Counted from the first letter of the stretch, positions 10,859-40,105 are shown. The stretch: DNA of 55,430 nucleotides from an uncultured Nitrososphaerota archaeon (GCA_964477685.1 CAYZHK010000002.1:1-55430); one strand, 5' to 3'. Notes: generated by a model from the sequence alone, not told the origin. Numbers and translations: made by a program.

Positions 10859-10874
10859 TAGGGAGACATCCAGG

Positions 10875-11397
<523 letters not shown>

Positions 11398-11403
11398 TCG
11401 CCA

Positions 11404-12036
11404 TCACCTTTCCATCTGCTTTCTTTCGAGAAGGTTCTTGACCTTCTTTACCCTTACGAATTCCTCACGGTCCCTCTCCTCGAGGACGCTGGTTATCAAA
11501 GAGACCGTGGCGGCGTAGCGGGGTATCAACGACTGTTCGAGGGCATTTATCCTCTGCTGGGTCTTTTTGACCTCCTCCACGAGCCGGAAGAGCGTGCTCT
11601 CAAGCTCGGCCACCCTGATAATTAGGGGCAGTGCCTGGAAAAACCTCTCAGAAGTATCGTCGAGGAGCACGGTAGGGCGGGATATGTCGTAGCCGATGGT
11701 CCTCTTGATGTTGGCCAGCTGGAACGAGACTGTCGTCACCCCCATAACCTTCCTCTTGGAGGAGGTAAGGTCAAAACTTATCCTGGGAATCTTGCCTGCG
11801 GTCTCAAGCTCCTTTGTTCCCATGACCACAGTCGTCGACTCCAGCAGCTCGTAGGCTTCCTTGAGGCTCCTGTTCAGCTCCTCCCGAACCTTAGCCGCCT
11901 CCCCTGCCCTCCGGCTGACCTCCAGCAGCAGTATGTCCCTCTTGTCTTCAAGAAGGTCATGGGCCTTCCTCAGAAAGACCAGTGTCCGCTTGAAGCGGAT
12001 GAGGTTCATTTTTGAGGGGGGAACGCGCTCAGACAA
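11404..12036 (-). CDS. atpD: A1AO ATP synthase subunit D (central stalk)
   Basis: 210 aa. N-terminus PSKMNLIRFKRTLVFLRKAHDLLEDKRDILL and C-terminus EERDREEFVRVKKVK are typical of AtpD. Confidence 0.85.
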   Translation of the reverse strand: MSERVPPSKMNLIRFKRTLVFLRKAHDLLEDKRDILLLEVSRRAGEAAKVREELNRSLKEAYELLESTTVVMGTKELETAGKIPRISFDLTSSKRKVMGVTTVSFQLANIKRTIGYDISRPTVLLDDTSERFFQALPLIIRVAELESTLFRLVEEVKKTQQRINALEQSLIPRYAATVSLITSVLEERDREEFVRVKKVKNLLERKQMER

Positions 12037-12046
12037 ATGGGCAGCC

Positions 12047-13426
12047 TCAGCGGGCTTTGTAGTACTGCTTCAGGAAGCGGTCGGCTATCCTTGTGAGTTC
12101 GGAATCAGGGAGCAGGGACAGCTGTTCCCAGGCTACTCTGAGGGTCGTCTCCAGGGTCCGGTTCTCGTCGTACTTCTGGCTCAGGAAATTCCTCTCGAAC
12201 TCGTCCCCGAACCTCAGGTAGGCCCTGTCCTTGTCCGTGAGGCCCTCCTCGCCGATGATTGAGCTGAGCTGCCGCAGGTCCTGGGCCCTGGAGTATGCGG
12301 AGTAGAGCTGGCTGGCCACTGGGCCGTGATCTTCCCTCGTCTTCCCCTTTCCAATCCCGTCCTTCATCAGCCTGGAGAGGCTCGGAAGGATATTGATGGG
12401 CGGGTAGAGGCCCCTCCGGTGGAGATCTCTGTCGATGACTATCTGCCCTTCGGTGATGTAGCCAGTCAGATCGGGGATGGGGTGAGTGATGTCGTCGTTC
12501 GGCATGGTTAGGACGGGCATCTGGGTGATGCTGCCCTTCCGTCCGCGGATCCTTCCGGCCCTCTCGTATATGGAGGCGAAGTCGCTGTACATGTAGCCGG
12601 GATAACCCTTCCGGCTTGGAACCTCCTCCCGGGCAGCGCTGATTTCCCTCAGCGCTTCGGCATAATTCGTCATGTCGGTGATGACCACAAGCACGTGCAG
12701 ATCCTGCTCGAAAGCCAGGTATTCGGCCAGGGTCAGGGCACTCCTAGGGGTTACGAGCCGTTCCACTGGTGGGTCATCGGCTAGGTTCAGGAATATGGCA
12801 GAGTTCTTGAGCGCACCGGACTCCTCAAAGCTTCTCTTGAAGAAGGCCGCCTCGTCATGCTTTATCCCCATGGCGCAGAAGACAACAGCGAAACCAGTCT
12901 CTTCGCCCACGATGGTTGCCTGTCGGGCTACCTGCGTAGCCAAGAGGTTGTGAGGAAGGCCAGAGCCGGAAAAGATCGGCAGCTTCTGCCCTCTCACGAG
13001 GGTGTCCATGCCATCTATGGCTGAAACGCCGGTCTGGATGAACTGCACTGGGTAGTCCCTTGAGTAGGGGTTCATTGGTAGACCATTCACGTCCCGGTAG
13101 TCCTCGGTGAAGGGCACTGGCCCCTGATCGATGGGTTCGCCCAGACCGTTGAAAACCCTCCCGAGCATCTCTGTGGACAGGGGTATGGTGAGCGGCTTGC
13201 CCAGAAACTTGACAGAGGTTTCCGTGGTGGAGAGCCCTGCTGTGCCCTCGAAGACCTCCACAGCCGCTACATCCCTGTTGATCTGGAGGACCCTTCCCTG
13301 CCTCAGGCTCCCATTGGGGAGCCTCACCTCGGCGAGCTCGCTGAAGCCGACATTTGATGTCCCCTCCACGAACAGGAGGGGGCCGCTGATCTTCTGGACA
13401 CTCCTGTATTCGATTGGCAGTTCCAT
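12047..13426 (-). CDS. atpB: A1AO ATP synthase subunit B
   Basis: 459 aa; motifs [26 protein letters not shown]. Confidence 0.95.
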
Positions 13427-15199
13427 CTACTTGGCCTCCAACTCCCTGATCTCCTGTCCAGCCTTCTCTACGTAGTTATCTATCTCAGCTATGCGCTCGT
13501 TCTCCACAGACATCCTCAGCTTTGTCAGATCGGGTATGACTGGGAGCGTCGCTATCTTGCTGGAGGGGACTCCCTTGGACACCGCCTCCATGGCCATGTC
13601 ATAGAACTTGAGGATGGCCTCCAGCAGCTTATACTGCTTTTCGGGAGAAGAGTAGGTGTCTATGGGGTCATAGGCATTTTGCTGGAGGTACCCTTCCCTG
13701 AGGAGCCTCGCTACCTCCAGGAGGATCTTCTCCGACTCAGGGAGCGACTCGGGGCCGACCAGCCTTATTATTTCCTTCAGCTCGTCCTCCCTCTTCAGGA
13801 TGTTCAGCGCCTTAATGGTAATCTCCCTCCACCTGCCACCGGTCTTTTCCCTCCACCAGGGTTCGACATAGCTCACATATTCGGAATAACTGGTGAGCCA
13901 GTTAATTGCGGGGTAATGGCGCATGCTCGCAAGGGTACTGTCAAGGGCCCAGAAGGCCCTGACGAACCTCTTGGTGTGGACTGTGACAGGCTCCGAGAAG
14001 TCTCCGCCTGGGGGCGAGACGGCCCCCACAATGGAAACAGATCCGAAGCCTCCGCTGAAGGTCCCTACCCTGCCGGCCCTCTCGTAGAATTCGCCGACCC
14101 TCGATGAGAGGTAGGATGGGAAGCCCTCTTCGGCGGGCATCTCCTCCAGCCTTCCCGATATCTCCCTGAGCGCCTCGGCCCACCTGCTGGTGGAGTCGGC
14201 AAGCACGGCCACGTTGTAGCCCATGTCCCTGTAGTATTCTGCTATGGTGATGCCGGTGTAAATGCTGGCCTCGCGCGCGGAAACTGGCATGTTGCTGGTG
14301 TTGGCAATCAGGACTGTCCGCTCCATCAGAGGCCTGCCGGACTTGGGGTCTTTCCATTCGGGGAAGGTGAGGAGCACCTCGGTCATCTCGTTCCCCCGCT
14401 CCCCGCAGCCGATGTAGACTATTATCTCTGCGTCTGACCAAGCAGCAACCTGGTGGGACGTGATGGTCTTCCCGGTCCCGAAACCGCCAGGTATCGCCAC
14501 TGAGCCGCCCTTTGCTACAGGGAAGAACATGTCTATTATCCGCTGCCCGGTGATGAGGGGCTCCGAAGGCTCAAGGCGTTCCTTGTAGGGCCTCGGTTGC
14601 CGGACAGGCCACCTGTGGTAAAGCCTTAGGTCTATTTGCCCTTTCTCGCTCTGGACTCGGGCAATGATCTCCTCGACGGTGTAGTCCCCTTCGGCCGCCT
14701 CGAATTCCAGCTCTCCCATCACATTGGGGGGGACAAGGATCCTGTGCTCGAAGAGGGGGGTTTCCTTGACTGTCCCGAGGATATCGCCGCCGGATACCCT
14801 ATCGCCCTTCTGCTTCAGGGGGATAAAATGCCATTTCTTGCTCCTGTTGAGGGAAGGAGTCTTGACTCCCCTTGCGATGTAGTCTCCGGTCATGTCCCTT
14901 ATGACAGGCAGTGGTCGCTGGATCCCATCGAAAATGCCCTCCAGGAGGCCTGGCCCCAGCTCCACTGCCAAGGGAAGGCCGAACCCTCTGACCTTCTCGC
15001 CGATCTTGAGGCCACCTGTTTCCTCGTAGACCTGGATCGTTGCCTGGTCTCCCTCGACCCTGACAACTTCCCCTATGAGTTCGGCCTCTCCTACCAATGC
15101 CAATTCGTACATTTGGAGGCCGGAGACACCCTCCGCCTGGACCACAGGTCCGCTGATCTTGATCAGTTTGCCAGTGATGGTCATGTTCAGCTCACCCAA
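13427..15199 (-). CDS. atpA: A1AO ATP synthase catalytic subunit A (no intein)
   Basis: 590 aa with Walker A PGGFGTGKTI, plus GERGNEMTEVL and [22 protein letters not shown]. The length rules out an intein. Confidence 0.95.
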   Translation of the reverse strand: MGELNMTITGKLIKISGPVVQAEGVSGLQMYELALVGEAELIGEVVRVEGDQATIQVYEETGGLKIGEKVRGFGLPLAVELGPGLLEGIFDGIQRPLPVIRDMTGDYIARGVKTPSLNRSKKWHFIPLKQKGDRVSGGDILGTVKETPLFEHRILVPPNVMGELEFEAAEGDYTVEEIIARVQSEKGQIDLRLYHRWPVRQPRPYKERLEPSEPLITGQRIIDMFFPVAKGGSVAIPGGFGTGKTITSHQVAAWSDAEIIVYIGCGERGNEMTEVLLTFPEWKDPKSGRPLMERTVLIANTSNMPVSAREASIYTGITIAEYYRDMGYNVAVLADSTSRWAEALREISGRLEEMPAEEGFPSYLSSRVGEFYERAGRVGTFSGGFGSVSIVGAVSPPGGDFSEPVTVHTKRFVRAFWALDSTLASMRHYPAINWLTSYSEYVSYVEPWWREKTGGRWREITIKALNILKREDELKEIIRLVGPESLPESEKILLEVARLLREGYLQQNAYDPIDTYSSPEKQYKLLEAILKFYDMAMEAVSKGVPSSKIATLPVIPDLTKLRMSVENERIAEIDNYVEKAGQEIRELEAK

Positions 15200-15803
15200 A
15201 CAGGATTTCAGCTATCTTGCCCCTCAGCGCCTTCCTCTCAGATTCCAGTATGCTGTCTATGGATCTGTCAATTGCCGCACGCCCGTCCTTTCGGATTGCG
15301 ATGAAGCCGCCAGTCCCAATCTGCTTCTGCATGATCGAAGCGCCCGAGCCTGCGGCCTGCCTGATCTTTTCCTCCCCGACCAGACTCAGATCGCCGGGAT
15401 TGATCAGCAGCTCGCCTATGGGCATCTTCTTCGATATCGCCTTGAGCTCATTGAGCAGTATGGACCTGTATTCGGGGGTTGTGGTAAAGGACTGGAGCTT
15501 CTTCTTCGCTTCCACCAGAACCATATCAACGTAGGATTCCTTGAGCTGTAGCAGCCCCATGCGGGCCTCGATCTCTGCCTTGGATATTTCCTTCCGGGCC
15601 TCGATCTCAGCCATCTCACCATAGGACGAGGATATCTCCTCGACCCGCCGCAGGGCAAACTTCTCCGACTCGTCCAGAGCTGCCAATGCCTTCTTTTCAG
15701 CCTCGGCTATGGCTTTTTCGGCATTGGCGCGGGACTGCTCGAAGATGGCGTCCATCAGTTTCCTGAAGCCATCCTGCTGGCCTCGCCCCAGCTCGCCGCT
15801 CAT
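15192..15803 (-). CDS. atpE: A1AO ATP synthase subunit E
   Basis: 203 aa with a long N-terminal coiled coil plus a globular C-domain (GGFIAIRKDGRAAIDRSIDSILE). ATGA overlap with atpF. Confidence 0.75.
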   Translation of the reverse strand: MSGELGRGQQDGFRKLMDAIFEQSRANAEKAIAEAEKKALAALDESEKFALRRVEEISSSYGEMAEIEARKEISKAEIEARMGLLQLKESYVDMVLVEAKKKLQSFTTTPEYRSILLNELKAISKKMPIGELLINPGDLSLVGEEKIRQAAGSGASIMQKQIGTGGFIAIRKDGRAAIDRSIDSILESERKALRGKIAEILFG

Positions 15804-16099
15804 ATTTTTGCACCCATAATCCGAGTGATTGTGGATTTAATATCTATATCGGAACCGCCATGACGGCCGGGCACTTCCACGAGGACAGGGAGGGCATGCT
15901 TGACCCTCAATTCCTCGACCTTCGCCCTTGCCTGGGAGGAGTAGTCCCTGTCCACCAGTATGATGCCGACCCCTTCGGTCTTGAAGGCTGCGTTCAGCGC
16001 GTCGATCAGCTGGTCGACGCTCGAGACCGCAACAACCTCAACCCCGGCGAGCCTGTAACCATTCACCAGTGCTGGATCACCAATAAAGAAGGTTCGCAT
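15800..16099 (-). CDS. atpF: A1AO ATP synthase subunit F
   Basis: 99 aa; FIGDPALVNGYRLAGVEVV and GIILVD are typical of AtpF. Confidence 0.8.
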   Translation of the reverse strand: MRTFFIGDPALVNGYRLAGVEVVAVSSVDQLIDALNAAFKTEGVGIILVDRDYSSQARAKVEELRVKHALPVLVEVPGRHGGSDIDIKSTITRIMGAKI

Positions 16100-16107
16100 T
16101 GTGGAGG

Positions 16108-16389
16108 CTACTCCTTGGTAGGGGTACCTGCCTCAATGAGGGCTTTTACTTTCTTTAATTTTTCGATGAGGAGGTCGTAGGGGGCCACAGGCTCCACTAT
16201 CAGCCCCAACTCCTGGATGGCCTTGACCCCTTCGATGGAGTAGATCGGCGCCTCGATCTTGACATGCTCGCTGAAGGGGTTTCCCACAACATAATCCCGA
16301 TAGGGGAGCTTGGCCCTGTGTTCCAGGACCCAGCCGCCCAGGTTTACCACATCTTTTGCGCGGATGGCTATTTTGGGCATCATTATCAC
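16108..16389 (-). CDS. Hypothetical 93-aa soluble protein, last gene of the hydrogenase module
   Basis: Starts 4 nt after the NuoH-like gene and ends 8 nt before atpF. No TM helix and no recognisable motif. It occupies the position that EhbP has after EhbO (positional analogy only). Confidence 0.5.
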   Translation of the reverse strand: MIMMPKIAIRAKDVVNLGGWVLEHRAKLPYRDYVVGNPFSEHVKIEAPIYSIEGVKAIQELGLIVEPVAPYDLLIEKLKKVKALIEAGTPTKE

Positions 16390-16393
16390 CAGA

Positions 16394-17440
16394 TCATAGG
16401 CTTATGGTCAATATCATGGCGAGGACTCCGATCGCTGAGAGGCTGACAGTAATCGGGTAGATCTGCCTGAAGGTCAGAATCGGCGAGAAGGCGGCGAGGA
16501 TCGCCAACGAGACGGGCAGGATCAGGCTGAGGAGCATGTTGGTAATGAATGCCAGAGGCATGAGGGGATCAAAAGGTATTCCTATGAAGAGGGTCACGAA
16601 GATGCTGGACATTGTGAAGAGAAGAAGGTTTCGCATTATGTAGTAGTAACCCCTGAGCTTGGATGCATATTCCAGCACCCCGCCCTCGATCACATCGGCC
16701 TTGGCCTTGAGGATGCTGAAGGGCTTTTCGTTCAGCAGCATTACGTACCCCATCAGGTAGACTATGGCCGCGAGGAAGCCTGAAATGCTGAGGATTATTG
16801 GTGATGACGGCAGAGGAAGACCGTACCAGGGGGCAAAGAAGTAGGAGGGGTTCTGGTAGGCAACCACCATGGAGATGAGTGGGCTCCTAGCGGCAACGAA
16901 CGGGACGACGAGGGCCAAGTAGATGGGGAGTGAGCCGATGGCCATCATCTTCAGGGCCCTTTCGGAAGAGTGCTGCTCCACGAACTCCCTCCTCACGCAC
17001 GGCATCTTGGAGCCCTTGGCAAGGTCAGGGACGGGCATGGAGGTGGAGAGGATCGACTGGGACTGGGACCCCATGAGGACGTACAGCACCTCCTCCAGCT
17101 TCAGCATTCCGGCAATCCCGAGGATGCTCCCCCAGCCGAGCACAGCCCACCAGAAGGGGGTCCTGAAGAGGAAGAGAAGAGCGACAAAGCCGACGCCGAA
17201 GTAGACCAGATATTTGTAGAACTTCGGCATCTGGGCGATGGGCTCCATCTTGGACTTGTAGCCGAACTTGATGACTGTCCAGAAGCCAGGGGTAAGGATG
17301 GGCGGGCCTATCCTCTGCTGGATCCTCGCCTGGACTTTCCTTTCGATTCCGGGGAGGATCAGCGAATAGCTAATGGCTATGCCTATGGCTATTATTGATG
17401 AGGCTATGAGGCCCGCTGCGAAAATTAGATAGTCGACCAT
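16394..17440 (-). CDS. Hydrogenase membrane subunit, NuoH/HycD/MbhM/EhbO-like
   Basis: 348 aa, multi-TM. N-terminal GIERKVQARIQQRIGPP matches the NuoH-family ER+xxAxxQxRxGP motif. Confidence 0.8.
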   Translation of the reverse strand: MVDYLIFAAGLIASSIIAIGIAISYSLILPGIERKVQARIQQRIGPPILTPGFWTVIKFGYKSKMEPIAQMPKFYKYLVYFGVGFVALLFLFRTPFWWAVLGWGSILGIAGMLKLEEVLYVLMGSQSQSILSTSMPVPDLAKGSKMPCVRREFVEQHSSERALKMMAIGSLPIYLALVVPFVAARSPLISMVVAYQNPSYFFAPWYGLPLPSSPIILSISGFLAAIVYLMGYVMLLNEKPFSILKAKADVIEGGVLEYASKLRGYYYIMRNLLLFTMSSIFVTLFIGIPFDPLMPLAFITNMLLSLILPVSLAILAAFSPILTFRQIYPITVSLSAIGVLAMILTISL

Positions 17441-17443
17441 CCC

Positions 17444-18637
17444 TCACCGCCTCCAGCCAAATTTCTTGACTATCTCCAGCTCGCTCATCGATCTGCTCTT
17501 CCCCGATTCCACCACCTCTGCCCTGGTGCAGCAGGTGAGGCACGGGTCGCAGCTCGCTATTGTGACGATGGCGTCGGTGACGTGGTCGCCGATGCAGACC
17601 TGTTCCATTGCGGCCAGGTTGGTAATGGTGGGTGTCCTGATCTTATAGTTCCTGAGGAGGCCGCGGTCGTCGAGGGCGTAGGAATGCATCAGCTCGCCCC
17701 TGTAGGATTCATTGTAGGCGGTGGTATAGTCCATCCTCGCTACGCACCATTCGTTGTTTATTATTGGGCCGTCGGGGATGTTTTTCACCACCTGGCGGAT
17801 GATCTTCACGCTCTCGATTACCTCCAGGGCCCTTACCACAATCCTGGCCTTATTGTCACAGCCATCTTGGGTGATAATGTTGAAGTCGAAGGGCTTGTAC
17901 TCCTTCATGTCCCTCCGCAGGTCGAAATCCCATGCAGAGCCCCTGCCGGTGGGCCCTGTGGCATACCACTTGATTGCCTCCTCCTTGGTCATGAATCCGA
18001 CACCGGTCAGCCTCGCCATGACCATGGGGTCGGCAAGCACCCTCTCCACAAAGTTGAGGTATTTCTTTTCGAACTCGTCGATCCTGTCAAGGATGGCCCT
18101 CTTGAGGGGTTCGGTGAGGTCTGCCCTCGGCCTGATCCCCCCTATAACGGCCACTGACGCCATCACCCGGTTTCCGCCGAGATATCCCATCAGATCCATG
18201 AAGGTCTCCCTGAGGAGGAAGGTCCTCATGGAGAATGTCTCGTGTCCCAGGACCTCGAAGGCGTGCGCCAAGAGGATGAGGTGGCTCGTGATCCGCTGGG
18301 TTTCGTGGGTCAGCACTCGGATGTAATTTGCCCTCTCGGGGACGTTGATCTTCAAACCGCCTTCCACGACCCTGACGGAATTGAAGGCGTGCACATGGGA
18401 GCAGATGCCGCAGACCTTCTCGGCTATGAGGAGGGCCCTATCCACCGGCAGACCCTCGAAGAGCTTCTCAATGCCCCTGTATGCCATGTTGATGGTAATC
18501 TCACAGTCTTCAACGTACTCATCGTTGACAAAGAGCCGTATTCTGTAGGGCTCAATGAGGGCCGGGTGAACCGGTCCAAAGGAGAGCTCTTTCTCGATGA
18601 CCTTTGCGGGTGTATTTGATTTTGCATTTTCTGCCAT
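17444..18637 (-). CDS. Group 4 [NiFe] hydrogenase large subunit (NuoD-like)
   Basis: 397 aa. N-terminal ligand motif KVCGICSHVH (C76, C79) and C-terminal DPCLTCCTR (C366, C369, R372), so all four Ni-Fe cysteines are present. A 25-aa tail follows R372. Confidence 0.9.
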   Translation of the reverse strand: MAENAKSNTPAKVIEKELSFGPVHPALIEPYRIRLFVNDEYVEDCEITINMAYRGIEKLFEGLPVDRALLIAEKVCGICSHVHAFNSVRVVEGGLKINVPERANYIRVLTHETQRITSHLILLAHAFEVLGHETFSMRTFLLRETFMDLMGYLGGNRVMASVAVIGGIRPRADLTEPLKRAILDRIDEFEKKYLNFVERVLADPMVMARLTGVGFMTKEEAIKWYATGPTGRGSAWDFDLRRDMKEYKPFDFNIITQDGCDNKARIVVRALEVIESVKIIRQVVKNIPDGPIINNEWCVARMDYTTAYNESYRGELMHSYALDDRGLLRNYKIRTPTITNLAAMEQVCIGDHVTDAIVTIASCDPCLTCCTRAEVVESGKSRSMSELEIVKKFGWRR

Positions 18638-18638
18638 T

Positions 18639-19088
18639 CTATGGCGCCTCCAGCAGTTTCGGTATGGCCTTTACAACGCCCGCCAGTATGTCCTCGGGCC
18701 TTGGCGGGCACCCCGGCACGCGCACATCCACTGGGATCACATTCTCCACCGGGGCATGGATCTCATCGTTGGTGCCGATCTCTCCCACCATGTTCTTGTA
18801 GACGTTGCCATTGAGGGCGCAGGAGCCGATGGCCACAACGCCCTTTGGATCAGGGATCATGGAGTAGAACTTCTTCAGAGGCTCAAGCAGCTGCCAGGAG
18901 ACGATGCCAGAGACCACCAGCACGTCGGCTTCCCTAGGGTTCCATGTGAAGAGTACCTTGTACTGCTCCATGTCGTACCTGGGCGATAGGAGGGCGTTGA
19001 CGGCCTCTATGTCGCAGCCGTTGCAGCCCCCGGAGTAGAAGAGCATGACATGGATCGAGTTGCTTCGGGCTCTAACCTTTAGGCTCAT
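18639..19088 (-). CDS. Group 4 [NiFe] hydrogenase small subunit (NuoB-like)
   Basis: 149 aa from [10 protein letters not shown]. The four cluster cysteines are GGCNGCD (C22, C25), IGSCALNG (C90) and PGCPPRP (C127). The start makes an ATGA overlap with the upstream gene; the longer track ORF (to 19409) is an out-of-frame overlap. Confidence 0.85.
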
Positions 19089-19576
19089 TTGCTCACTTCC
19101 TTGATGAATGTCATCTGGTCCGCGGGGATCAGCTTGCTGAGAGCTTCGATCTTCTCGGGCGGTGCCCTCACGGGCTTCTTCAGTATCTCCTGCAGCGTCA
19201 GGTGGGGGCTTCCGATGTCCCTTGGGTGAATCGGGGCGGCCTCGCCGAATATGGAGAAGATGGGGCATATGTCGTGGCAGTTGAGGCAGAAGACGCATTT
19301 GAGGAGGTCTATCCTTGGCACCTGGGTGCGCATGTAGCCCTCGACGATCTCCACAGGCTTCTCGAGCTGCACCATGGTTATCGCCTTGGTAGGGCAGACG
19401 TAGTAGCACCCGCTGCAGCCGATGCAGGTCTCGTCCAGCACGGTCGGGGTGGGCTGGACACTGAGGGTTGCCACGCTCTTCCTTAGCTCAATACTTGTGG
19501 CCCTATCATTCTTTGCGACAATCCTGACGAAATTCTTGTAGGCCCCCTCCAGCATCAGTCTGAAGAATGTGATCAT
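19085..19576 (-). CDS. 2x[4Fe-4S] subunit, NuoI/MbhN/EhbL-like
   Basis: 163 aa with two cubane motifs, [12 protein letters not shown] and [12 protein letters not shown]. Confidence 0.85.
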
Positions 19577-20007
19577 GGTATTACCAACACCTCTTCTGCC
19601 CTGCCCCTCACCACCTTGGGGCTATAGAACTTGACAACCCTAATGCATTCCGTGGGGCAGGTTGTGGCGCATGCCCCGCATCCTATGCACTTCTTCTCGT
19701 CGATGTATGCCAGCCCGTCCTTGATGTAGGGGGCATGGTCACCCTTCAGGGTGATCTTGCAGGCGTCGACGCAGAGCGCGCAGCCTATGCAGAGGTTCCG
19801 GTCGACGCTGATGGTGTGCCGCTCCAGCTTCCTGACCGGGAGGTTCCAGAGGACAGGGATGGCCATGGTGGGGCAATGCGAGCCGCAGAGCTCACAGAGT
19901 ACGCATTTGTCCAGGTCTATGGTGGGCTTTGTGTCTGTGATCGGGTTGAATTTGATGGCGTTGGTGGGGCAGACCCTGACGCAGGTTCCGCACCTTATGC
20001 ATATCAT
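19573..20007 (-). CDS. Polyferredoxin, 4 cubane motifs
   Basis: Start at MICIRCG (ATGA overlap at 20004-20007). Motifs: CIRCGTCVRVCP, CVLCELCGSHCP, CIGCALCVDACK, CIGCGACATTCP. Confidence 0.85.
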   Translation of the reverse strand: MICIRCGTCVRVCPTNAIKFNPITDTKPTIDLDKCVLCELCGSHCPTMAIPVLWNLPVRKLERHTISVDRNLCIGCALCVDACKITLKGDHAPYIKDGLAYIDEKKCIGCGACATTCPTECIRVVKFYSPKVVRGRAEEVLVIP

Positions 20008-20666
20008 TCGATTTCGCCCTCCCAGCTCTCTGTTTTTATGGACAACGCCCCCACAGGGCATGAGCGGACGCAGCGTCCGCAAAGCACGCAGTAGCCAGCT
20101 GGATACCTGTCCTTGAGGTGGATGGTCTGCGGCGGGCAAGCGCGGACGCACTCCCCGCAAAGGACGCAGAGGTCCGCGTAGAGCTTGACCCTACCCAGCT
20201 CGAACTTCAGAGCCTCAGTCGGACAGGCTATGCAGCAGAGGCTACAGAGCGAGCAGTTGATTATGGAGGCGCCAGCATCGCCCTTGTTGATCTTCAGCTC
20301 GTTGTTCTCGAGGCGGATGGCCCCGGTTGGGCATTTCTCGTAGCACTGCATGCACTTTACGCAGTTGAACTTGATGACCCGGTCCTTGTACGTGGAGGTG
20401 AGGAAGTACTTCTTTCCATAGTCCTCCGGCTTGAATTTGGTCTCAAACGAGTCTATTGCCTTGACCGGGCAGACCTCGGCACAGAGGTTGCAATGGGTGC
20501 AGAGGCCCCGCCTCTCCACGGTGAACTTGATGGATTTGGTTGGGCAGACGTTCCTGCAGCGGCCACAGAGTATGCACTTGGACATGTCGCGGTAGATCTT
20601 CCGCTTCATGACCTTGGTCTTCGGCACCGGTGCGGCTGCTGCGGCGGCCGTGGCTGGGGCGGTCAT
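20004..20666 (-). CDS. Polyferredoxin, 6 cubane motifs
   Basis: Motifs: CILCGRCRNVCP, CTHCNLCAEVCP, CVKCMQCYEKCP, CSLCSLCCIACP, CVLCGECVRACP, CVLCGRCVRSCP. The N-terminus is Ala-rich. Confidence 0.85.
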   Translation of the reverse strand: MTAPATAAAAAAPVPKTKVMKRKIYRDMSKCILCGRCRNVCPTKSIKFTVERRGLCTHCNLCAEVCPVKAIDSFETKFKPEDYGKKYFLTSTYKDRVIKFNCVKCMQCYEKCPTGAIRLENNELKINKGDAGASIINCSLCSLCCIACPTEALKFELGRVKLYADLCVLCGECVRACPPQTIHLKDRYPAGYCVLCGRCVRSCPVGALSIKTESWEGEIE

Positions 20667-21130
20667 CAGGGGCTCACCGCCTTTGCCTCCACTTTGGGTT
20701 TTGCCTTCCCCTCAAGTATCTCGGCCAGCCTCTCCGGGGAGGCAATCTCGAGGATGAGCGGATAGTCTATGGGCTTCTTCAGCTTGGGCAGTATATCCAC
20801 CCTGGCATTCTTTGGACAGACCTTGACGCAGAGGCCGCACCTCACGCAGATGCCCTTCACCCTCTGGTTTCCCTTCGCCTTTTCGCCTACGATCTTGGCA
20901 AAGTCAAAGGGGCAGTGCTTGACGCACATGCCGCAGAGTGTGCACCTCTTCCTGTCAACGTACCAGCCCCCGAATTTGTTCTTCCTTATGGCATTGGTGG
21001 GGCAGACAGAAGCGCATTGGCCGCAGGTTGTGCAGCTGAATGGGAAGCCGTCAGGATGCCTTATGCAGTCCGTGGGGCAGACCTCCCAGCATTTTCCGCA
21101 CTTGTCGCAGGCTGTGGTGGTGATGTACAT
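20666..21130 (-). CDS. Polyferredoxin, 4 cubane motifs
   Basis: Motifs: CDKCGKCWEVCP, CTTCGQCASVCP, CTLCGMCVKHCP, CVRCGLCVKVCP. Confidence 0.85.
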   Translation of the reverse strand: MYITTTACDKCGKCWEVCPTDCIRHPDGFPFSCTTCGQCASVCPTNAIRKNKFGGWYVDRKRCTLCGMCVKHCPFDFAKIVGEKAKGNQRVKGICVRCGLCVKVCPKNARVDILPKLKKPIDYPLILEIASPERLAEILEGKAKPKVEAKAVSP

Positions 21131-21391
21131 CTATTTTCCTCCAACATACTTGCCGATGAGCAGCCCCACCACTGCCCCTATGAGGGGTGTGGCGAAGCTA
21201 ATCTCAGGGGTAATGAATCCTCCCAGAATGCTGGTTGTGAATAGTGGGGCCTCAAAGAGGAAGGCCGCCACTATGGTGAGGCCAATGATCAGGAGGATCC
21301 CCCGCCGGCTCAACTGCCCCAGGAACTGGGTTCCGAATAGGAAGCCCAGAAGGAGGGCAATGAAGAAGGGGGTTATCTCGCCAAGCATCAT
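21131..21391 (-). CDS. Small membrane protein (86 aa), unassigned subunit
   Basis: Three hydrophobic segments. ATGA overlap upstream, and it abuts the next ATG downstream (TAG followed directly by ATG). Confidence 0.55.
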   Translation of the reverse strand: MMLGEITPFFIALLLGFLFGTQFLGQLSRRGILLIIGLTIVAAFLFEAPLFTTSILGGFITPEISFATPLIGAVVGLLIGKYVGGK

Positions 21392-22248
21392 TTGCCATCG
21401 CCCTCCTTCACAGCCGGCTCACTTACCGCATCGCTCCAGCCATAGATGAATGCAAAGAAGATCAGCCCAATTGCCCCGATCACGTTGAAGGCCTCGCCCA
21501 GATTGATCAGGGGGACTATCCCTGACGTGGAATAGAAGGTCCCCTCCTGAAGGGTGAGGGCCAGGCGGAACGGATCCCCAAAGACGGAGGTCCAAGCGGA
21601 GGACACCAGCCCCCAGAGGTCTGTTCCAACGTTATACTGCCAGTAGCCGGTGGTTAGGTAACCCGGCAGGCCCAGAAGGGCGTAGAGGGCCCAGCCAAAG
21701 CTGCCTATGGCGACAAGGAATTTCCTGTTGAGGTTCATCGGATTGTGCTTTCCGAACATGATGACGCTGAGAAGGTAGGCGGAGGAGATGATCACACCGC
21801 ATTGGAAGCCGCCTCCGCCAGAGGTTGCCACCCCTGTCACCACCATTATGCCGTAGGCAGTAAGCAGTATGGCCGTGGGTAGGGCAAAGTACTTCAGGAT
21901 GGGGGTGATGGACTCTGTCTTGAGCTGAAGGGGAGGCGAGACCATGGGCGGCTGCCCCTCGTCGGCAGTCAGCCTGACCACTCCCCTGCCGATCACCATA
22001 ACCGATACGACAGCCCCCACATAAATCACCCCCGTCTCCATCAGTGTGTCAAAGCCTCTCCAGTCGTAGACCCACATGGACAGGCTGTTGGGGGCCTGAA
22101 GGAACGCCAGGGCGTTGTAGTAGGGGCTGATGCCAGGGGTTACATTCCCATTGAGGTCAAATAGGGCGGCGAAAAGACCGACGGTTATGATCGCCAGTGC
22201 CACCACCACAATGATACCACGCCCGCCTTTGAGATCATTTGGACCCAT
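21388..22248 (-). CDS. MrpB/MnhB-like membrane subunit (long form, 286 aa)
   Basis: Contains both MnhB hallmarks: DWRGFDTLMETGVIYVGA (YRGxDTLGE-like) and SGGGGFQCGVIISSA (GGGFQGG-like). Confidence 0.75.
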   Translation of the reverse strand: MGPNDLKGGRGIIVVVALAIITVGLFAALFDLNGNVTPGISPYYNALAFLQAPNSLSMWVYDWRGFDTLMETGVIYVGAVVSVMVIGRGVVRLTADEGQPPMVSPPLQLKTESITPILKYFALPTAILLTAYGIMVVTGVATSGGGGFQCGVIISSAYLLSVIMFGKHNPMNLNRKFLVAIGSFGWALYALLGLPGYLTTGYWQYNVGTDLWGLVSSAWTSVFGDPFRLALTLQEGTFYSTSGIVPLINLGEAFNVIGAIGLIFFAFIYGWSDAVSEPAVKEGDGK

Positions 22249-22251
22249 TGT

Positions 22252-22578
22252 CTATCTCCCCCACATGGTTACAGCTATTATCACCGCGAAGTAGATCACG
22301 ACCCAGAAGAGGACGGTGTTCAGGTCATTGCTGCTCTCCTTCTGGACCCTGCGGAGCACAGGGGCAAAGTAGAGGATGCCCGCTATTGCCCCCACCAAAA
22401 TCACTATCCCGAGGGGCACCGAGAAGATCCTGAAGAAGGATGCCAGTATCAATATGAACACCAGCGCCTGCAGCTCCCCGGTCATATAGCCCGTTAGCTG
22501 GTCAGTGAATCCTCTCCCCTCAATGAATGGGGAAGCCCACTTCTTTAGACGGTCATAGATGCTCTCTACAGATACCAT
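22252..22578 (-). CDS. Small membrane protein (108 aa), unassigned subunit
   Basis: Only the last 108 codons of the 382-aa track ORF are taken (MVSVESIYDR...). ATG at 22578; 13-nt overlap with the MrpD-like gene; 2-3 TM helices. Confidence 0.55.
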   Translation of the reverse strand: MVSVESIYDRLKKWASPFIEGRGFTDQLTGYMTGELQALVFILILASFFRIFSVPLGIVILVGAIAGILYFAPVLRRVQKESSNDLNTVLFWVVIYFAVIIAVTMWGR

Positions 22579-24095
22579 GGTATGCTCACCAACTCCGCTA
22601 TGGGTGTCACGAACTGAAGCACGATGTTGGGATAGACGCCGATCACCAGAGCGATGGCGATAAGGATCCCAAGGGCTACGTAGATCCAGCGGGGGATCGG
22701 ACTCTCCTTCGGCACAGCAGCAGAGCCCTCCTCGCTGACAATGGGATCTGCCGGCTTGAAGAAGAGGGTGTAGATTCCCCTGAAGATGGCTATGAAGGTT
22801 GTCACGCTCACAAGCAGTATTACGGCGGCAATTTCCGGAAGGTTCACCAGGAGCGCAGCCCGGATCAGGATGATCTCGCTCTGGAAGCCGTTGAAGAGAG
22901 GTATGCCCGACGCTGCCATGGCACCGAGGACGACGGCAGCCGTGAGCCAGGGGGCCTTCTTGGCTATGCCGATGGCCGTCTTTGTGGATGTACCCCTCCC
23001 GAAGTAGATGACAGCCTCCACAGCGATCAGCAGAACGCTCATGTAGATGATATCGTTCACTGCCTGGAAGAGACCCCCGGTGAGGCCCTCGGTGGTGCCC
23101 AGCGAGATGCCTATGGTCACAAGACCGCTGTGGCTCACTATCAGGTAGGCCAGTATCCAGCGGAAGTCGGTCTGGAGTAGGGCCATCACTACGCCGAACA
23201 TCATGGTCAGGACGCTGACTGCGATCATCACCTCCCTCGTGAAGGGGAGAGTCCCGAAGAGCCTCAGCATAACTATACCCATGGCCACTAGGGAAAGTTT
23301 GGACTGTGCCTGGAGCATCACTGTGCCATGGGGGAATGAAGCCCCGTAGACATCTGATTTGAGCGGGTGGACAGGGACCAGACCGCCGGCGTATATCCAT
23401 GAGAGGGCGAAGAAGCCGAATGCCACATAGAGGACGGTGGCCATGCCCCCGAGGTCATGGCTGTGGAGGAAGGTTATGGAATCCGAAATGTTTGAGAACC
23501 CTGTCAGGCCGAGGATCAGTGCAAGGGAGACGGCCAGGCCGGCGCCACTGAGCGCCGAGAAGAAGGTGTACTTGAGGGCTGCCCTGTGGCTTACGCCATC
23601 GCCGGAGGCGACAACTATTCCTGCCACCACAAGGCTTCCAAGCTCCACACCAATCCAGAGGTGGTAAAAGTCATTCACCATGATTATTATGGCGGCAGAC
23701 ATGAAGGTGAGGAAGATCATCGCCATGTAGGCGCCCTGGTTCTTGGTCAGGTTGGGGCTCGCCACCAGGACGACGAGGACTAGGACGAGGGCCAGCACGG
23801 CGATCAGTATCTGCTGGAGGGGGCCGAAATAGTACTCCAAGGCCAGTCGCCAGGCAGAGGTGCCTGCGCCGAAGGTGAATGTGAATGTGCTGGTATCCAC
23901 TGCCGGGACGCCCGTGAACCAGTAATAGCCATAGGTCGAGATCAGCGTAATTGCCAGAAGGGCTACCGCCGAAGCCACTGAGACGCAGCGGATCAGCCTC
24001 TTCTTGTTGAAGAGGAAGTTCACAAGTATTGCTGTGAGCAGTGGGATGATCACCAGCAGGGCGATTGACCAGAGGTTCGTCACGGTTTCGCTCAT
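22566..24095 (-). CDS. Antiporter-like subunit, MrpD/NuoN/MbhH family
   Basis: 509 aa, about 14 TM. Proton_antipo_M-type features: NDFYHLWIGVELGS, AALKYTFFSALSGAGL, LVPVHPLKSDVYGA. Confidence 0.85.
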   Translation of the reverse strand: MSETVTNLWSIALLVIIPLLTAILVNFLFNKKRLIRCVSVASAVALLAITLISTYGYYWFTGVPAVDTSTFTFTFGAGTSAWRLALEYYFGPLQQILIAVLALVLVLVVLVASPNLTKNQGAYMAMIFLTFMSAAIIIMVNDFYHLWIGVELGSLVVAGIVVASGDGVSHRAALKYTFFSALSGAGLAVSLALILGLTGFSNISDSITFLHSHDLGGMATVLYVAFGFFALSWIYAGGLVPVHPLKSDVYGASFPHGTVMLQAQSKLSLVAMGIVMLRLFGTLPFTREVMIAVSVLTMMFGVVMALLQTDFRWILAYLIVSHSGLVTIGISLGTTEGLTGGLFQAVNDIIYMSVLLIAVEAVIYFGRGTSTKTAIGIAKKAPWLTAAVVLGAMAASGIPLFNGFQSEIILIRAALLVNLPEIAAVILLVSVTTFIAIFRGIYTLFFKPADPIVSEEGSAAVPKESPIPRWIYVALGILIAIALVIGVYPNIVLQFVTPIAELVSIPWYL

Positions 24096-24466
24096 CGCTT
24101 CTCCTCCTTGAGGACTTTGGATGCCTTGAGAGTCCCGTGGCGCCGGTAGAGCATTATGACCAAGGCAACGAGGATCGCCGTCGTACTGACGCCTATGACA
24201 ATGTTGGTCAGAACGATTCCCACGGGGAAGACAAGGACGGCGTTGTTGACGAATTCGGTGACCGAGTCGCCGGGCTCCAGGATGGCCGCCACGCCGCCCT
24301 GGACGTATCCAACCGCCACCAGCAGAAGGTTCACGCCGTCCGAGAGGAGGGTGAAGGCTATGATCTTCTTGATGAGGTTGTCCATGAGCAGCAGGCCGGC
24401 CAGCCCGATTATGACCAGCGCGGCGGCCGCAATGAATGCAAGAAGCTGGAGGGAGATCTCGATCAT
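24092..24466 (-). CDS. MrpC/NuoK-like subunit
   Basis: 124 aa, 3 TM. LIKKIIAFTLLSDGVNLLLVAVGY resembles MnhC/NuoK. Confidence 0.8.
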   Translation of the reverse strand: MIEISLQLLAFIAAAALVIIGLAGLLLMDNLIKKIIAFTLLSDGVNLLLVAVGYVQGGVAAILEPGDSVTEFVNNAVLVFPVGIVLTNIVIGVSTTAILVALVIMLYRRHGTLKASKVLKEEKR

Positions 24467-24720
24467 TCCTCTTCAGTCCTCCTTGTCTTGAAGATTGCCA
24501 GTATGATGAGGCCGGGGAGGAGCACCGTACCGACTATGGCCTGCGTGACGCCGAGGTCAGGTGCCAGGAGGGCCTGGAATATGAAGGCTAGGGCAATGCT
24601 CTCAGCCCCCGAGATGAAGGCTGCCCTGAGAAGGTCCTTCTGCAGGAGCGCTGCCACAGCGCCCACCGTAATGCCGACGACCATTATGTAGGCTATAACC
24701 ATGAAACTGTCTATGATCAT
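24463..24720 (-). CDS. MrpB N-terminal/DUF4040-like subunit (MbhD-like)
   Basis: 85 aa. ALLAPDLGVTQAIVG matches the DUF4040 APDVAxTEAxVG motif. Confidence 0.7.
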   Translation of the reverse strand: MIIDSFMVIAYIMVVGITVGAVAALLQKDLLRAAFISGAESIALAFIFQALLAPDLGVTQAIVGTVLLPGLIILAIFKTRRTEEE

Positions 24721-25205
24721 TTTTCCAACCTCCTATGGTAGGTGTAATAGTAGGCATTCGCCAGCGCGTTTCCAGAGAACGGGATCAGCAGGAAGAAGAA
24801 AAATCCCACTGCCACAAGGTCTATCCTCAATATCAATATCCCCACGAAGATCATAACAAGCGAGGCCGTGACGTCTATGACCCCTGTGATGTGGTTCCGG
24901 GCATAGAAGATGCTAGGGCCGTGCTCGTCGTTGAACCTGAAGAGGCCGACCGTCGCAGCTATCATAGGGGCGACTCCTGCAAAGAGGATGCCGGCTGCGC
25001 CTATCTTCATGACCACCTCAAGGGCCTCCGCCGGAGGAGTGCCCATCAGAGCCAGCGCCACGGAGGCGAGCACGAAGACAAAGATGAGGATCGGTATCGA
25101 TTTTGATGCGTCGAAGATGAAGCTGCCCTTGCGTATATTCAATGCCACATATGCGATCACTATTGCGCCGTATACGGCTACGAATATCTCCTCCAGCATT
25201 GTCAT
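24717..25205 (-). CDS. MrpG/MnhG-like subunit with two extra N-terminal helices
   Basis: 162 aa. GLFRFNDEHGPSIFYARNHITGVIDVTAS resembles the MnhG RFPDxxxRxHAxxxxDTxG region. Confidence 0.65.
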   Translation of the reverse strand: MTMLEEIFVAVYGAIVIAYVALNIRKGSFIFDASKSIPILIFVFVLASVALALMGTPPAEALEVVMKIGAAGILFAGVAPMIAATVGLFRFNDEHGPSIFYARNHITGVIDVTASLVMIFVGILILRIDLVAVGFFFFLLIPFSGNALANAYYYTYHRRLEK

Positions 25206-25498
25206 TCCTCCGTCCTGAATATCCTGGCAAATACTATGGTTCCAACGCCCCCAAAGACCAAGAGGGCAATGGCGGTGTCCCTGGCGAAGCCAACATTGAA
25301 GAGTTCAGGGAGCGAAATAAGGTAGAGCCCAGCTCCAGCTATGGTGGTGAAGCAGCTCACTCCCATAAGGGATGTGATCGCCTCGCCCTTCAGGGCTAGG
25401 CGGATGCACCCAAGCCCAGCCAGGGTGAGGGCCACAAGAAAAATGAGGGCGGACCAGAAGAAGGCCGTCCCTGCCAGGGTAACAAGGAAGTCACTCAT
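25202..25498 (-). CDS. MrpF/MnhF-like subunit
   Basis: 98 aa, 3 TM. Start at MSDFLV gives an ATGA overlap with the MrpE-like gene. The family call rests on size, topology and position after MrpE. Confidence 0.6.
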   Translation of the reverse strand: MSDFLVTLAGTAFFWSALIFLVALTLAGLGCIRLALKGEAITSLMGVSCFTTIAGAGLYLISLPELFNVGFARDTAIALLVFGGVGTIVFARIFRTEE

Positions 25499-25800
25499 TC
25501 GCCCAACCACCCAAGGACGTGGGGCTCGAGGGGAGTAACGTCTGCCCTTCCCCTCGGATTTATTGCGCCCACGATATACTGCCTCTTTTCACGGTCAATC
25601 TCGATCGTGACTGTGCCGGGGGTATAGGTAATGCTGTTAGCCACCATTACCTGTCCCAATGGATTCTTGACGTCTGTGTCAATGTGCACAATACATGGGT
25701 CAATGTCTCCGTTGAGGCACCTTTTACTGACATCTATAACGGAGGCCAGGATCTCTCTCACCAGTCTGAGCCAATACCTGATTCCATAAACCAGACCCAT
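25495..25800 (-). CDS. MrpE/MnhE-like subunit
   Basis: 101 aa. VMVANSITYTPGTVTIEID matches the MnhE ITLTPGT motif. Confidence 0.75.
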   Translation of the reverse strand: MGLVYGIRYWLRLVREILASVIDVSKRCLNGDIDPCIVHIDTDVKNPLGQVMVANSITYTPGTVTIEIDREKRQYIVGAINPRGRADVTPLEPHVLGWLGE

Positions 25801-25806
25801 AGCTAT

Positions 25807-26091
25807 TCACCTTAGTACCCTATTCAGACCGACAATGAACGCGCGGCCATAGTCCATGTAAGAACCTTCGTCACCCGGTCTCACTTCAATGGCAATCGAT
25901 CTGTCCTGCCCATTCCCAATGAAGATGACCAGGTGCACCATCCGCCCCTTATCTTTTTTATGGAGGTGAAGCGTCCCCCTCTCCGGATCATCGACAGAAA
26001 TAAAGTAGCCTTGATCTTTGGCAACCTCTAGGGTTTTTTCATGCAGGGCAGAGTTGGTGGCGAAGTATCTCGCGAAAAGCGTGGGGACCAT
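25807..26091 (-). CDS. Hypothetical 94-aa soluble protein, first gene of the block
   Basis: Begins MVPTLFARYF... No TM helix and no recognised motif. Lies 6 nt upstream of the MrpE-like gene. An alternative GTG start at 26127 would sit almost on top of the TATA candidate. Confidence 0.5.
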   Translation of the reverse strand: MVPTLFARYFATNSALHEKTLEVAKDQGYFISVDDPERGTLHLHKKDKGRMVHLVIFIGNGQDRSIAIEVRPGDEGSYMDYGRAFIVGLNRVLR

Positions 26092-26140: not shown

Positions 26141-26261
26141 CTCTTTTTCCTTTGGAGACTGGTTAATTTATTGGCCTTTTTTTCTCAGGTGTGTATAGCG
26201 GCGTTATCTTTTCCTGCGATTCTTAATAGGGGAGATATACTAGGGATTGATCGATTCAAAG

Positions 26262-39999: not shown

Positions 40000-40105
40000 C
40001 GTCAGACCTCGCGTAGCACCCTACCTAAAATAAATACAGATATAAGGTTTTTGAGAGAATGGAAGCCGTAAGTTGATGTTGTAGCAGAATTTGTGGTGGT
40101 TCCCT

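Follow-up and report, generated by a model that had tools for sequence, protein, structure and literature searches.

A predicted energy-converting hydrogenase B operon with EhbK encoded in three parts in an uncultured Methanomethylicia archaeon

Here we describe three adjacent polyferredoxin genes in a stretch of 55,430 nucleotides (nt) from an uncultured archaeon deposited under Nitrososphaerota (GCA_964477685.1, CAYZHK010000002.1:1-55430; the whole stretch is called the window below, and all coordinates refer to it). Judged from its sequence, the 18-gene array on the minus strand that contains them, running from 26091 to 16108, is the operon of energy-converting hydrogenase B (Ehb), a group 4 [NiFe]-hydrogenase. 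The three open reading frames (ORFs) together are identified as a single subunit of this enzyme, EhbK, encoded as K1 (four clusters), K2 (six) and K3 (four). We assign a probability of about 0.9 to this reading, taken together with a general mechanism in which EhbK is an electron wire and electron flow is coupled to ion movement; the direction of operation lies outside that estimate. The host is identified as an uncultured Candidatus Methanomethylicia (Verstraetearchaeota, Thermoproteota) archaeon. Named homologues of K2, EhbL and EhbN come from Candidatus Methanomethylicia, Methanomethylicus or Methanosuratincola, and the Joint Genome Institute annotates the homologues as 'energy-converting hydrogenase B subunit L/N'. 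The three ORFs are the following (lengths in amino acids, aa).

20666..21130, minus strand: EhbK part 1 (K1), 154 aa; four [4Fe-4S] motifs and a conserved C-terminal tail
20004..20666, minus strand: EhbK part 2 (K2), 220 aa; an Ala/Pro/Lys-rich N-terminal linker and six [4Fe-4S] motifs
19573..20007, minus strand: EhbK part 3 (K3), 144 aa; four [4Fe-4S] motifs, of which motif 13 ends in CK

Translation confirmed the coordinates and the motif counts of 4, 6 and 4 that an earlier note on this DNA had reported. K1 has 17 cysteines and four canonical CxxCxxCxxxCP motifs, K2 has 25 cysteines and six motifs, and K3, read from its ATG, has 17 cysteines and four motifs, one with CK instead of CP. Pfam Fer4 matches all three proteins (E = 1e-26 to 5e-32). 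Fourteen motifs within 518 aa, all of them conserved in orthologues, are far beyond chance. A longer ORF that begins with TTG (19573-20160) was rejected as an ORF-calling artefact because relatives start at the same ATG or GTG. The 2-motif NuoI-like protein (19085-19576) and the NuoB-type protein do come next in line, as the note had said. The junctions through this part of the array are, in order, TAG directly adjacent to ATG, TGATG (a 1-nt overlap), ATGA, ATGA and ATGA, so that the three polyferredoxin ORFs overlap by 1 and 4 nt. Translational coupling, which the note had asserted for all of these genes, is probable for this tight arrangement of polyferredoxin and core genes.

That the three ORFs correspond to one subunit is seen most directly in an alignment. 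Concatenated K1, K2 and K3 are collinear from end to end with single-chain EhbK (MAFFT), and all 14 motif positions match one to one, although here they lie on three polypeptides; K1 covers the first 150 or so residues of the single chain. For 40 loci, the polyferredoxin motifs encoded upstream of EhbN were counted ORF by ORF (the prefixes L and P below mark individual loci and proteins). Distant EhbK sequences were gathered via EhbN homologues, a genome scan and our own ORF and motif parsing, while K2 and EhbL, used as queries in a word-indexed search for homologues, returned Methanomethylicia proteins only. The forms of EhbK that we found are listed below.

Methanobacteriaceae: one chain, 451-492 aa; 11-12 strict motifs and two with altered spacing
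Hadarchaeota: one chain, 457 aa; 14 motifs
Methanofastidiosia: one chain, 444 aa; 14 motifs
Methanomethylicia, 4+6+4 form: the window, L003, L005 and L008
Methanomethylicia, 4+10 form: L001, L009 and L010; K2-K3 proteins of 358-365 aa

In every Ehb operon examined, polyferredoxins occupy this same ehbK position; they are therefore not 'inserted' between an Mrp module and a hydrogenase core, as had been proposed, but stand where they ordinarily do. The EhbK of Methanothermobacter is a 14[4Fe4S] polyferredoxin, and the figures in the earlier note of 14 clusters for EhbK and two for EhbL were right (PMC3087415). The note's suggestion that a wire like that of Ehb is divided among three polypeptides is borne out by the Ehb family models, by the identity of the large subunit and by this motif-for-motif alignment.

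The assignment of the whole array to Ehb comes from scans of each ORF from 26127 to 16108 against Pfam and NCBIfam, which recovered ehbA to ehbP in canonical order. Besides the three parts of EhbK, the array consists of the following genes.

25807..26091, minus strand: conserved 94-aa ORF of no family, directly upstream of ehbA; probable first gene of the transcription unit
25495..25800, minus strand: EhbA (MrpE/MnhE-like membrane subunit); Pfam MNHE, E = 1.5e-18
25202..25510, minus strand: EhbB (MrpF-like); NCBIfam antiporter subunit F model, E = 9e-11
24717..25205, minus strand: EhbC (MrpG/MnhG-like); Pfam PhaG_MnhG_YufB, E = 1.8e-6
24463..24720, minus strand: EhbD (MbhD-type, MrpA C-terminal-like); Pfam MbhD, E = 4e-14; NCBIfam PRK06280, E = 6e-21
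24092..24466, minus strand: EhbE (MrpC/NuoK-like); Pfam Oxidored_q2, E = 5e-18; NCBIfam PRK07375.1-3, 122 bits (cutoff 107)
22566..24095, minus strand: EhbF (MrpD/NuoL-M-N-like antiporter subunit, 509 aa); NCBIfam PRK06277
22252..22578, minus strand: EhbG (108-aa membrane protein); same-position orthologues in L001, L003 and L005 belong to PF27305 MJ1308
21388..22248, minus strand: EhbH-EhbI fusion (MrpB/MnhB-like, 286 aa); Pfam MnhB at residues 118-260; NCBIfam PRK12579 and PRK06281
21131..21391, minus strand: small membrane protein in the EhbJ position (86 aa), assigned by position alone
19085..19576, minus strand: EhbL (NuoI-like 2 x [4Fe-4S] subunit, 163 aa); NCBIfam PRK06273
18639..19088, minus strand: EhbM (NuoB-type small subunit with one [4Fe-4S], 149 aa); Pfam Oxidored_q6, E = 2e-28; four cysteines
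17444..18637, minus strand: EhbN ([NiFe] large subunit, 397 aa); L1 motif CGIC(SHVH), L2 motif DPCLTC; identity to EhbN
16394..17440, minus strand: EhbO (NuoH-like membrane subunit); Pfam NADHdh, E = 2.6e-17
16108..16389, minus strand: EhbP (93 aa); Pfam PF10622, E = 4e-15, 56 bits (cutoff 27)

The Ehb identity is supported by the matches to EhbP, EhbF and EhbL models and by the separation of EhbN from other group 4 enzymes in sequence identity. Among the Ehb-specific subunits, EhbP and EhbL score above their cutoffs; the family matched by EhbP carries the title 'Energy-converting hydrogenase B subunit P', and EhbL is covered over its full length by its model (E = 1e-55, 188 bits, cutoff 163). 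For EhbF the model 'energy conserving hydrogenase EhbF' is the best one, yet it stays below its cutoff (E = 3e-108, 363 bits); the runner-up reaches 123 bits, 240 lower. EhbG has no match in a local Pfam scan and is assigned through the family of its orthologues, and the protein in the EhbJ position matches no Pfam or NCBIfam family. EhbA also matches NCBIfam PRK06279 (107 bits, cutoff 99) and is 38-48% identical to the gene in the ehbA position of Ehb loci outside Methanomethylicia, for example in Methanobacterium. The true start of EhbB is likely the ATG at 25498, which gives an ATGA overlap with ehbA. The spacing of EhbA, EhbF, EhbN and EhbP is constant across about 40 loci. No EhbQ was found in the window's operon, and tRNA and Rfam scans of the window gave no matches.

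For the large subunit, a scan of one genome per species with EhbN returned 590 relatives, of which the best 80 were compared. EhbN is 47-56% identical to EhbN outside Methanomethylicia, with Methanobacterium the nearest outside the class (52-56%) and Methanobrevibacter reaching down to 47%. The Ehb block as a whole (L008-L049), which spans Methanomethylicia, Methanobacteriaceae, Methanofastidiosia, Hadarchaeota and a metagenome-assembled genome (MAG) labelled 'Thermococci', lies at 47-77%. All other group 4 large subunits among these best 80 of 590 reach at most 39%, those of Thermococcus and Desulfurococcaceae 35-36%. One Methanobacterium MAG holds both kinds: an Ehb at 52% (L019) and a second locus at 38% (L054), which is Eha because it carries EhaA, DUF2105-2109 and DUF1959. 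Both the identities and a rough neighbour-joining tree place the window's large subunit among EhbN proteins and apart from the rest of group 4. The sequences KVCGICSHVH and CDPCLTC are present, and C76, C79, C366 and C369 are invariant in our alignment (A1). In the terms of HydDB, Ehb is 'group 4i, Ehb-type'.

Three other assignments were tried and rejected. An Eha reading fails since EhaA (PF17367), DUF2105-2109 and DUF1959 are all non-significant in the window's operon; the lone trace of Eha is a sub-threshold DUF2108 match on the EhbE protein (24 bits, cutoff 29.6). A reading as a group 4d enzyme of the Mbh/Mbx/Mbs type fails on the distant large subunit, the lack of a NuoC/MbhK-like subunit (Complex1_30kDa/NuoC has no match among the operon's proteins) and the 14 extra clusters. 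The best solved relative of the large subunit is nevertheless MbhL of P. furiosus (6cfw_L, E = 5e-48), but only because there is no Ehb structure. Finally, the best PDB match of K2 is the polyferredoxin MvhB (9sw6_G, E = 3.6e-36), followed by FmdF/FwdF at about 1e-17. An MvhB-type reading was rejected despite this high similarity, given that the genes lie inside ehb and have no mvh or hdr neighbours.

A split gene in a metagenomic assembly could be an error, but in this case the split is real, because it recurs in independent assemblies, has clean xTGA overlaps, differs from the fused state by one nucleotide at the junction and leaves the motif cysteines conserved. The same 4+6+4 arrangement is found in assemblies whose DNA has diverged and whose K2 is 58-71% identical to that of the window, and the split appears in at least three independently assembled lineages (the window, L003/L004 and L005-L008). 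In the contig collection, 50 blocks of the index list the 221-aa K2 orthologue P0006, and we read 24 contigs that encode it. All 56 of 56 motif cysteines are retained. The K1/K2 break lies within a variable linker, which is longer and Ala/Pro/Lys-rich in Methanomethylicia. The K2/K3 break falls two residues ahead of motif 11: in the split form K2 ends in WEGEIE and K3 begins with MICIRCGTC, whereas the fused form reads WDGKIEDSCIRCGTC, and a 1-nt indel at the junction separates the two states. Split forms combine an ATGA or GTGA overlap with GGGAGGG 8-10 nt upstream of the K3 start; at the same site fused forms have GGGATGG or GGGAAGG. By its sequence, GGGAGGG in the split state is a stronger Shine-Dalgarno-like element than its counterpart in the fused state.

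Other lineages have split K1 off as well (L012; P0170, P0172 and P0177), so that a single chain is probably not a defining feature of Ehb. When K1 was used as the query of an exhaustive HMMER search, the relatives recovered included single chains of 445-569 aa as well as complete K1-type proteins that stand alone (136-152 aa, forming at least four clusters at 50% identity). In the Ehb-type locus of the 'Thermococci' MAG (L012, 7665-9034), K1 is separate from the remainder of EhbK at the same linker, with a TAATG overlap. Based on the stand-alone proteins and on this locus, the linker after cluster 4 is identified as a recurrent fission point. Motifs 1 and 5 of the L012 EhbK are each short of a cysteine. 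A 3+8 split in a Methanobrevibacter MAG (L034, 7378-8867) was considered as a third independent fission and rejected; it has an 11-nt tandem duplication (CTTGAAAATGG twice), a frameshift and a TTG 'start', and is probably an assembly error or a pseudogene. In a rough neighbour-joining tree of EhbN, the 4+10 lineages are nested inside the 4+6+4 lineages, a tree too crude to choose between an ancestral 4+6+4 form with later re-fusion and two origins of the split.

The complex itself is well known. Ehb has been known since 1999, when EhbA-Q was reportedly described by Tersteegen and Hedderich. Compared with EhbA-Q of Methanothermobacter and Methanobacterium (Kaster et al. 2011, PMC3087415), the window shares the order of ehbA-P, the Mrp-like module, the position of the polyferredoxin and EhbL-P. 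Gene by gene, a Methanobacterium locus (L014) reads MNHE, MrpF (Pfam MrpF_PhaF, in the ehbB position), MnhG, MbhD, a NuoK-like and a 505-aa antiporter-like protein, then two small ORFs, MnhB, an 82-aa ORF that is the counterpart of the protein in the EhbJ position, and a 451-aa polyferredoxin, and ends with a 165-aa 2-cluster protein, the small, large and NuoH-like subunits and EhbP. In other words, the combination that the earlier note did not recognise as described, polyferredoxin plus full Mrp module, is present there as the same set in the same order; the subunit set is common, published and annotated. The differences from Methanobacterium-type Ehb are that EhbK is one chain of 450-490 aa there and three chains in the window, that EhbH and EhbI, fused in the window, have a gene each there (98 and 165 aa in L014), and that only the window has an extra conserved 94-aa ORF upstream and adjacent ATP synthase genes.

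The closest relatives are the Ehb operons of Methanomethylicus and Methanosuratincola, which have the same operon in the same neighbourhood (Trm1, ProRS, the 94-aa ORF, ehb, ATP synthase) and proteins 66-77% identical to those of the window; their K2 and K3 form one protein of 358-365 aa (4+10), compared with 4+6+4 in the window. Vanwonterghem is said to have reported the Ehb of Candidatus Methanomethylicus and Methanosuratincola in 2016. According to Adam et al. (2022; PMC9635834), the Ehb of Methanomethylicales has been published together with its cluster organisation, the cluster of Ca. Methanomethylicus mesodigestum has been drawn and the EhbH-I fusion has been noted. Ehb in Methanomethyliales or Methanomethylicia has also been reported elsewhere (PMC6421429; bioRxiv 10.1101/2022.08.18.504445). 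Hence, both the complex and its occurrence in Methanomethylicia are already known and annotated by public pipelines. The EhbK split is not mentioned in the text and supplement of Adam et al., Figure 3B aside; the fission is a minor gene-structure variant of which we found no published mention.

Other systems resemble the window in parts. Like the window, P. furiosus Mbh (PDB 6CFW) has a group 4 [NiFe] core (L, J, N, M) on an Mrp-derived ion-translocating module, and no other structure is a better template for the membrane arm and the core, but it has the 2-cluster MbhN alone, no polyferredoxin and a NuoC-like MbhK. Its large subunit (E = 5e-48) is also far more remote from that of the window than EhbN, which is about 54% identical. 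MvhB and FmdF/FwdF (PDB 9SW6, 5T5I, 7BKB) share with K2 the tandem 2x[4Fe-4S] ferredoxin repeats and the long chains of clusters, and have been seen as electron wires between enzymes in cryo-EM supercomplexes (PMC13580544); they differ in being encoded in mvh or fwd operons, as single chains of 12 or 8 clusters with soluble-enzyme partners. The sister complex Eha also distributes its clusters over more than one polyferredoxin polypeptide (EhaP with six, EhaQ with ten), yet it has its own subunits (EhaA, DUF2105-2109, DUF1959) and a large subunit merely 38% identical.

The ehb operon of the window is followed, 8 nt after ehbP and on the same strand (junction 16099-16108), by the genes of an ATP synthase, and the two together form a 26-gene same-strand array from 26091 to 8939. 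The features in and around this array are listed here.

8939..16099, minus strand: A-type ATP synthase genes F, E, A, B, D, (small ORF), K and I; assigned by the Pfam families of orthologues; subunit K confirmed in addition
40091..41128, plus strand: HypE, [NiFe]-hydrogenase maturation protein; NCBIfam TIGR02124, E = 6e-118, 393 bits (cutoff 252)

All Methanomethylicia loci that extend far enough show this adjacency, whereas some 30 Ehb loci of Methanobacteriaceae, Hadarchaeota, Methanofastidiosia and the 'Thermococci' MAG all lack it. The ATP synthase genes are outside Ehb itself but probably belong to the same expression unit. At the other end of the operon, the 94-aa ORF encodes a soluble protein and lies 6 nt upstream of ehbA; it occurs in the same position in all Methanomethylicia loci (46-55% identical), is absent from about 30 other Ehb loci and has no significant Pfam or NCBIfam match. 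About 45 nt upstream of its ATG there is a TATA-like TTATAAA, preceded by a purine-rich stretch. Its product may be an extra lineage-specific component or a regulator of Ehb.

Several neighbouring genes deserve a short description. Divergent from the ehb promoter region, 26247-27554 on the plus strand encodes a member of the TIGR00375 / MJ0043_C family, 435 aa long, whose N-terminal motif HIHSPFS is putatively PHP-domain-like. This gene, ProRS, AdoMet decarboxylase and Trm1 are conserved beside ehb in all Methanomethylicia loci. The c/K subunit of the ATP synthase (10875-11237, minus strand) reads ...GISLARAG... in its first helix and ...LCEAVAIYG... in its second. Na+-binding c subunits typically have a Gln and a Ser/Thr beside the carboxylate; both are missing from this sequence, and their absence would hint at H+ coupling. 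HypE, found about 14 kb from the ehb operon, shows only that [NiFe] maturation is encoded.

How might such a complex work? With the parts list and the homologies established above, the path of electrons can be proposed by analogy to Mbh, complex I and MvhB/FmdF. Electrons would move, in either direction, along a path that links the [NiFe] site in EhbN to EhbM with its single cluster, to EhbL with its two and to a 14-cluster wire running from K3 over K2 to K1, which would end at soluble ferredoxin or at a docked ferredoxin-dependent enzyme. The interconversion of H2 with 2H+ and two reduced ferredoxins would be coupled to Na+ or H+ movement through EhbO and the Mrp-like module EhbA-J. As the breaks fall in a variable linker and just before motif 11, K1, K2 and K3 are probably self-folding ferredoxin-repeat modules that assemble non-covalently, with the overlapping stop and start codons keeping their stoichiometry. 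In principle such a complex would be reversible.

Its direction in this organism is a separate question. We slightly favour a ferredoxin-oxidising, H2-evolving ion pump that would feed the ATP synthase, because of the ATP synthase linkage and because these organisms are H2-dependent methyl-reducing methanogens. For such methanogens Ehb has been proposed to oxidise ferredoxin, to evolve H2 and to build the gradient for ATP synthesis (PMC6019823), and an ion-pump role has likewise been proposed for the Ehb of Methanosphaera and Methanofastidiosa. On the hydrogenase physiology of cultured Methanosuratincola we found no paper in the library searched. A stronger version, in which the fission of K1, K2 and K3 is functional and the ehb-ATP synthase 'super-operon' marks Ehb as the place where methyl-reducing methanogens of the Thermoproteota primarily achieve chemiosmotic coupling, seems doubtful to us. 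It would have K1 dock reversibly to other ferredoxin-dependent enzymes, which K1, standing alone in several lineages, could do if the modules are separable.

One could argue that the three ORFs are nothing but one ehbK broken by a sequencing or assembly error or by recent pseudogenisation. K2 and K3 are indeed only one base away from their fused relatives, and L034, with its tandem duplication, shows that an apparently spurious split of EhbK can occur. This would, however, require the same two break points, the same ATG or GTG starts, the xTGA overlaps and the GGGAGGG to have arisen in at least three diverged lineages, with no loss of a motif cysteine and with P0006 as widely indexed as it is. 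We therefore consider such an error, which the earlier note had allowed for, extremely improbable. Just as hard to credit is a new architecture, in which an Mrp-linked hydrogenase of the Mbh/Mbx type (group 4d) had acquired a polyferredoxin array. The full Mrp-like subunit set and the ranking of MbhL as the best solved relative would fit it, the latter only for want of an Ehb structure. But EhbN, at 47-56% to other EhbN, is only 35-39% identical to the Thermococcus and Desulfurococcales-type enzymes, the models of EhbP, EhbF and EhbL match, a NuoC/MbhK-like subunit was not found, and canonical Ehb already has the same Mrp module together with a polyferredoxin.

The alternatives that accept an Ehb and concern its use have to be taken more seriously. 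Ehb could run anabolically, as in Methanococcus and Methanothermobacter, with an ion gradient driving H2-dependent reduction of ferredoxin for biosynthesis. The ferredoxin would serve pyruvate or 2-oxoacid synthases or the activation of Mcr, and the polyferredoxin would spread low-potential electrons over several acceptors. This is the accepted role of Eha and Ehb in hydrogenotrophic methanogens (PMC12350162, PMC13580544), and all subunits in the window are orthologous to those of the hydrogenotrophs' complexes. The linkage of ehb to the ATP synthase, which is specific to Methanomethylicia, and the published models that make Ehb a gradient generator in Methanomethylicia, Methanosphaera and Methanofastidiosa speak against it without being decisive, and we regard anabolic use as a strong contender that falls somewhat short of even odds. 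Alternatively, K1 to K3 could be dissociable carriers or docking arms, such that the fission would let K1 (or K1 with K2) shuttle between Ehb and a further redox partner, for example an Fpo-like complex, HdrD/GlcD or an Mcr-activating system. Fission at module borders, the stand-alone K1-type proteins and the precedent of MvhB as a polyferredoxin that bridges two enzymes would agree with this. Yet in every lineage the genes still belong to the operon and their stop and start codons overlap, the fused and the split form are collinear apart from the fission itself, and no partner gene is linked, which makes a shuttle unlikely in our view.

Some observations also weigh against the interpretation of the locus as an Ehb with a wired EhbK and an ion-pumping role. 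EhbF scores 363 bits against an equivalog cutoff of 578, as expected from the distance of the lineage. An AlphaFold2 model of a fused K2K3 homologue (P0005, from a 16-sequence alignment) was unusable, with a mean predicted local distance difference test score (pLDDT) of 41.7 and a predicted template modelling score (pTM) of 0.29. There is no Ehb chain in the PDB and no Ehb complex has been purified or solved; as a consequence, both the permanent attachment of EhbK and the sequence in which the clusters follow each other are matters of inference. Co-transcription of ehb and the ATP synthase genes is suggested by the 8-nt gap alone. To our knowledge, the only genetically characterised Ehb is that of Methanococcus maripaludis, and it is anabolic. 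Lastly, Methanomethylicia MAGs from Yellowstone lack HdrABC and MvhADG (Lynes et al.), which weakens a simple scheme of bifurcation and H2 cycling.

Overall, our finding adds little to biology: the complex is an ordinary one with a small lineage-specific twist, and the linkage to the ATP synthase and the 94-aa ORF are likewise small lineage-specific details. Still, the fission points of EhbK define modules of 4, 6 and 4 clusters, which could guide the design of constructs for structural and biochemical work on the Ehb polyferredoxin. The linkage of ehb with the ATP synthase genes gives circumstantial genomic support to the view that Ehb conserves energy by pumping ions in H2-dependent methyl-reducing methanogens, and whether Ehb acts in this way can now be tested in cultured Methanosuratincola strains.

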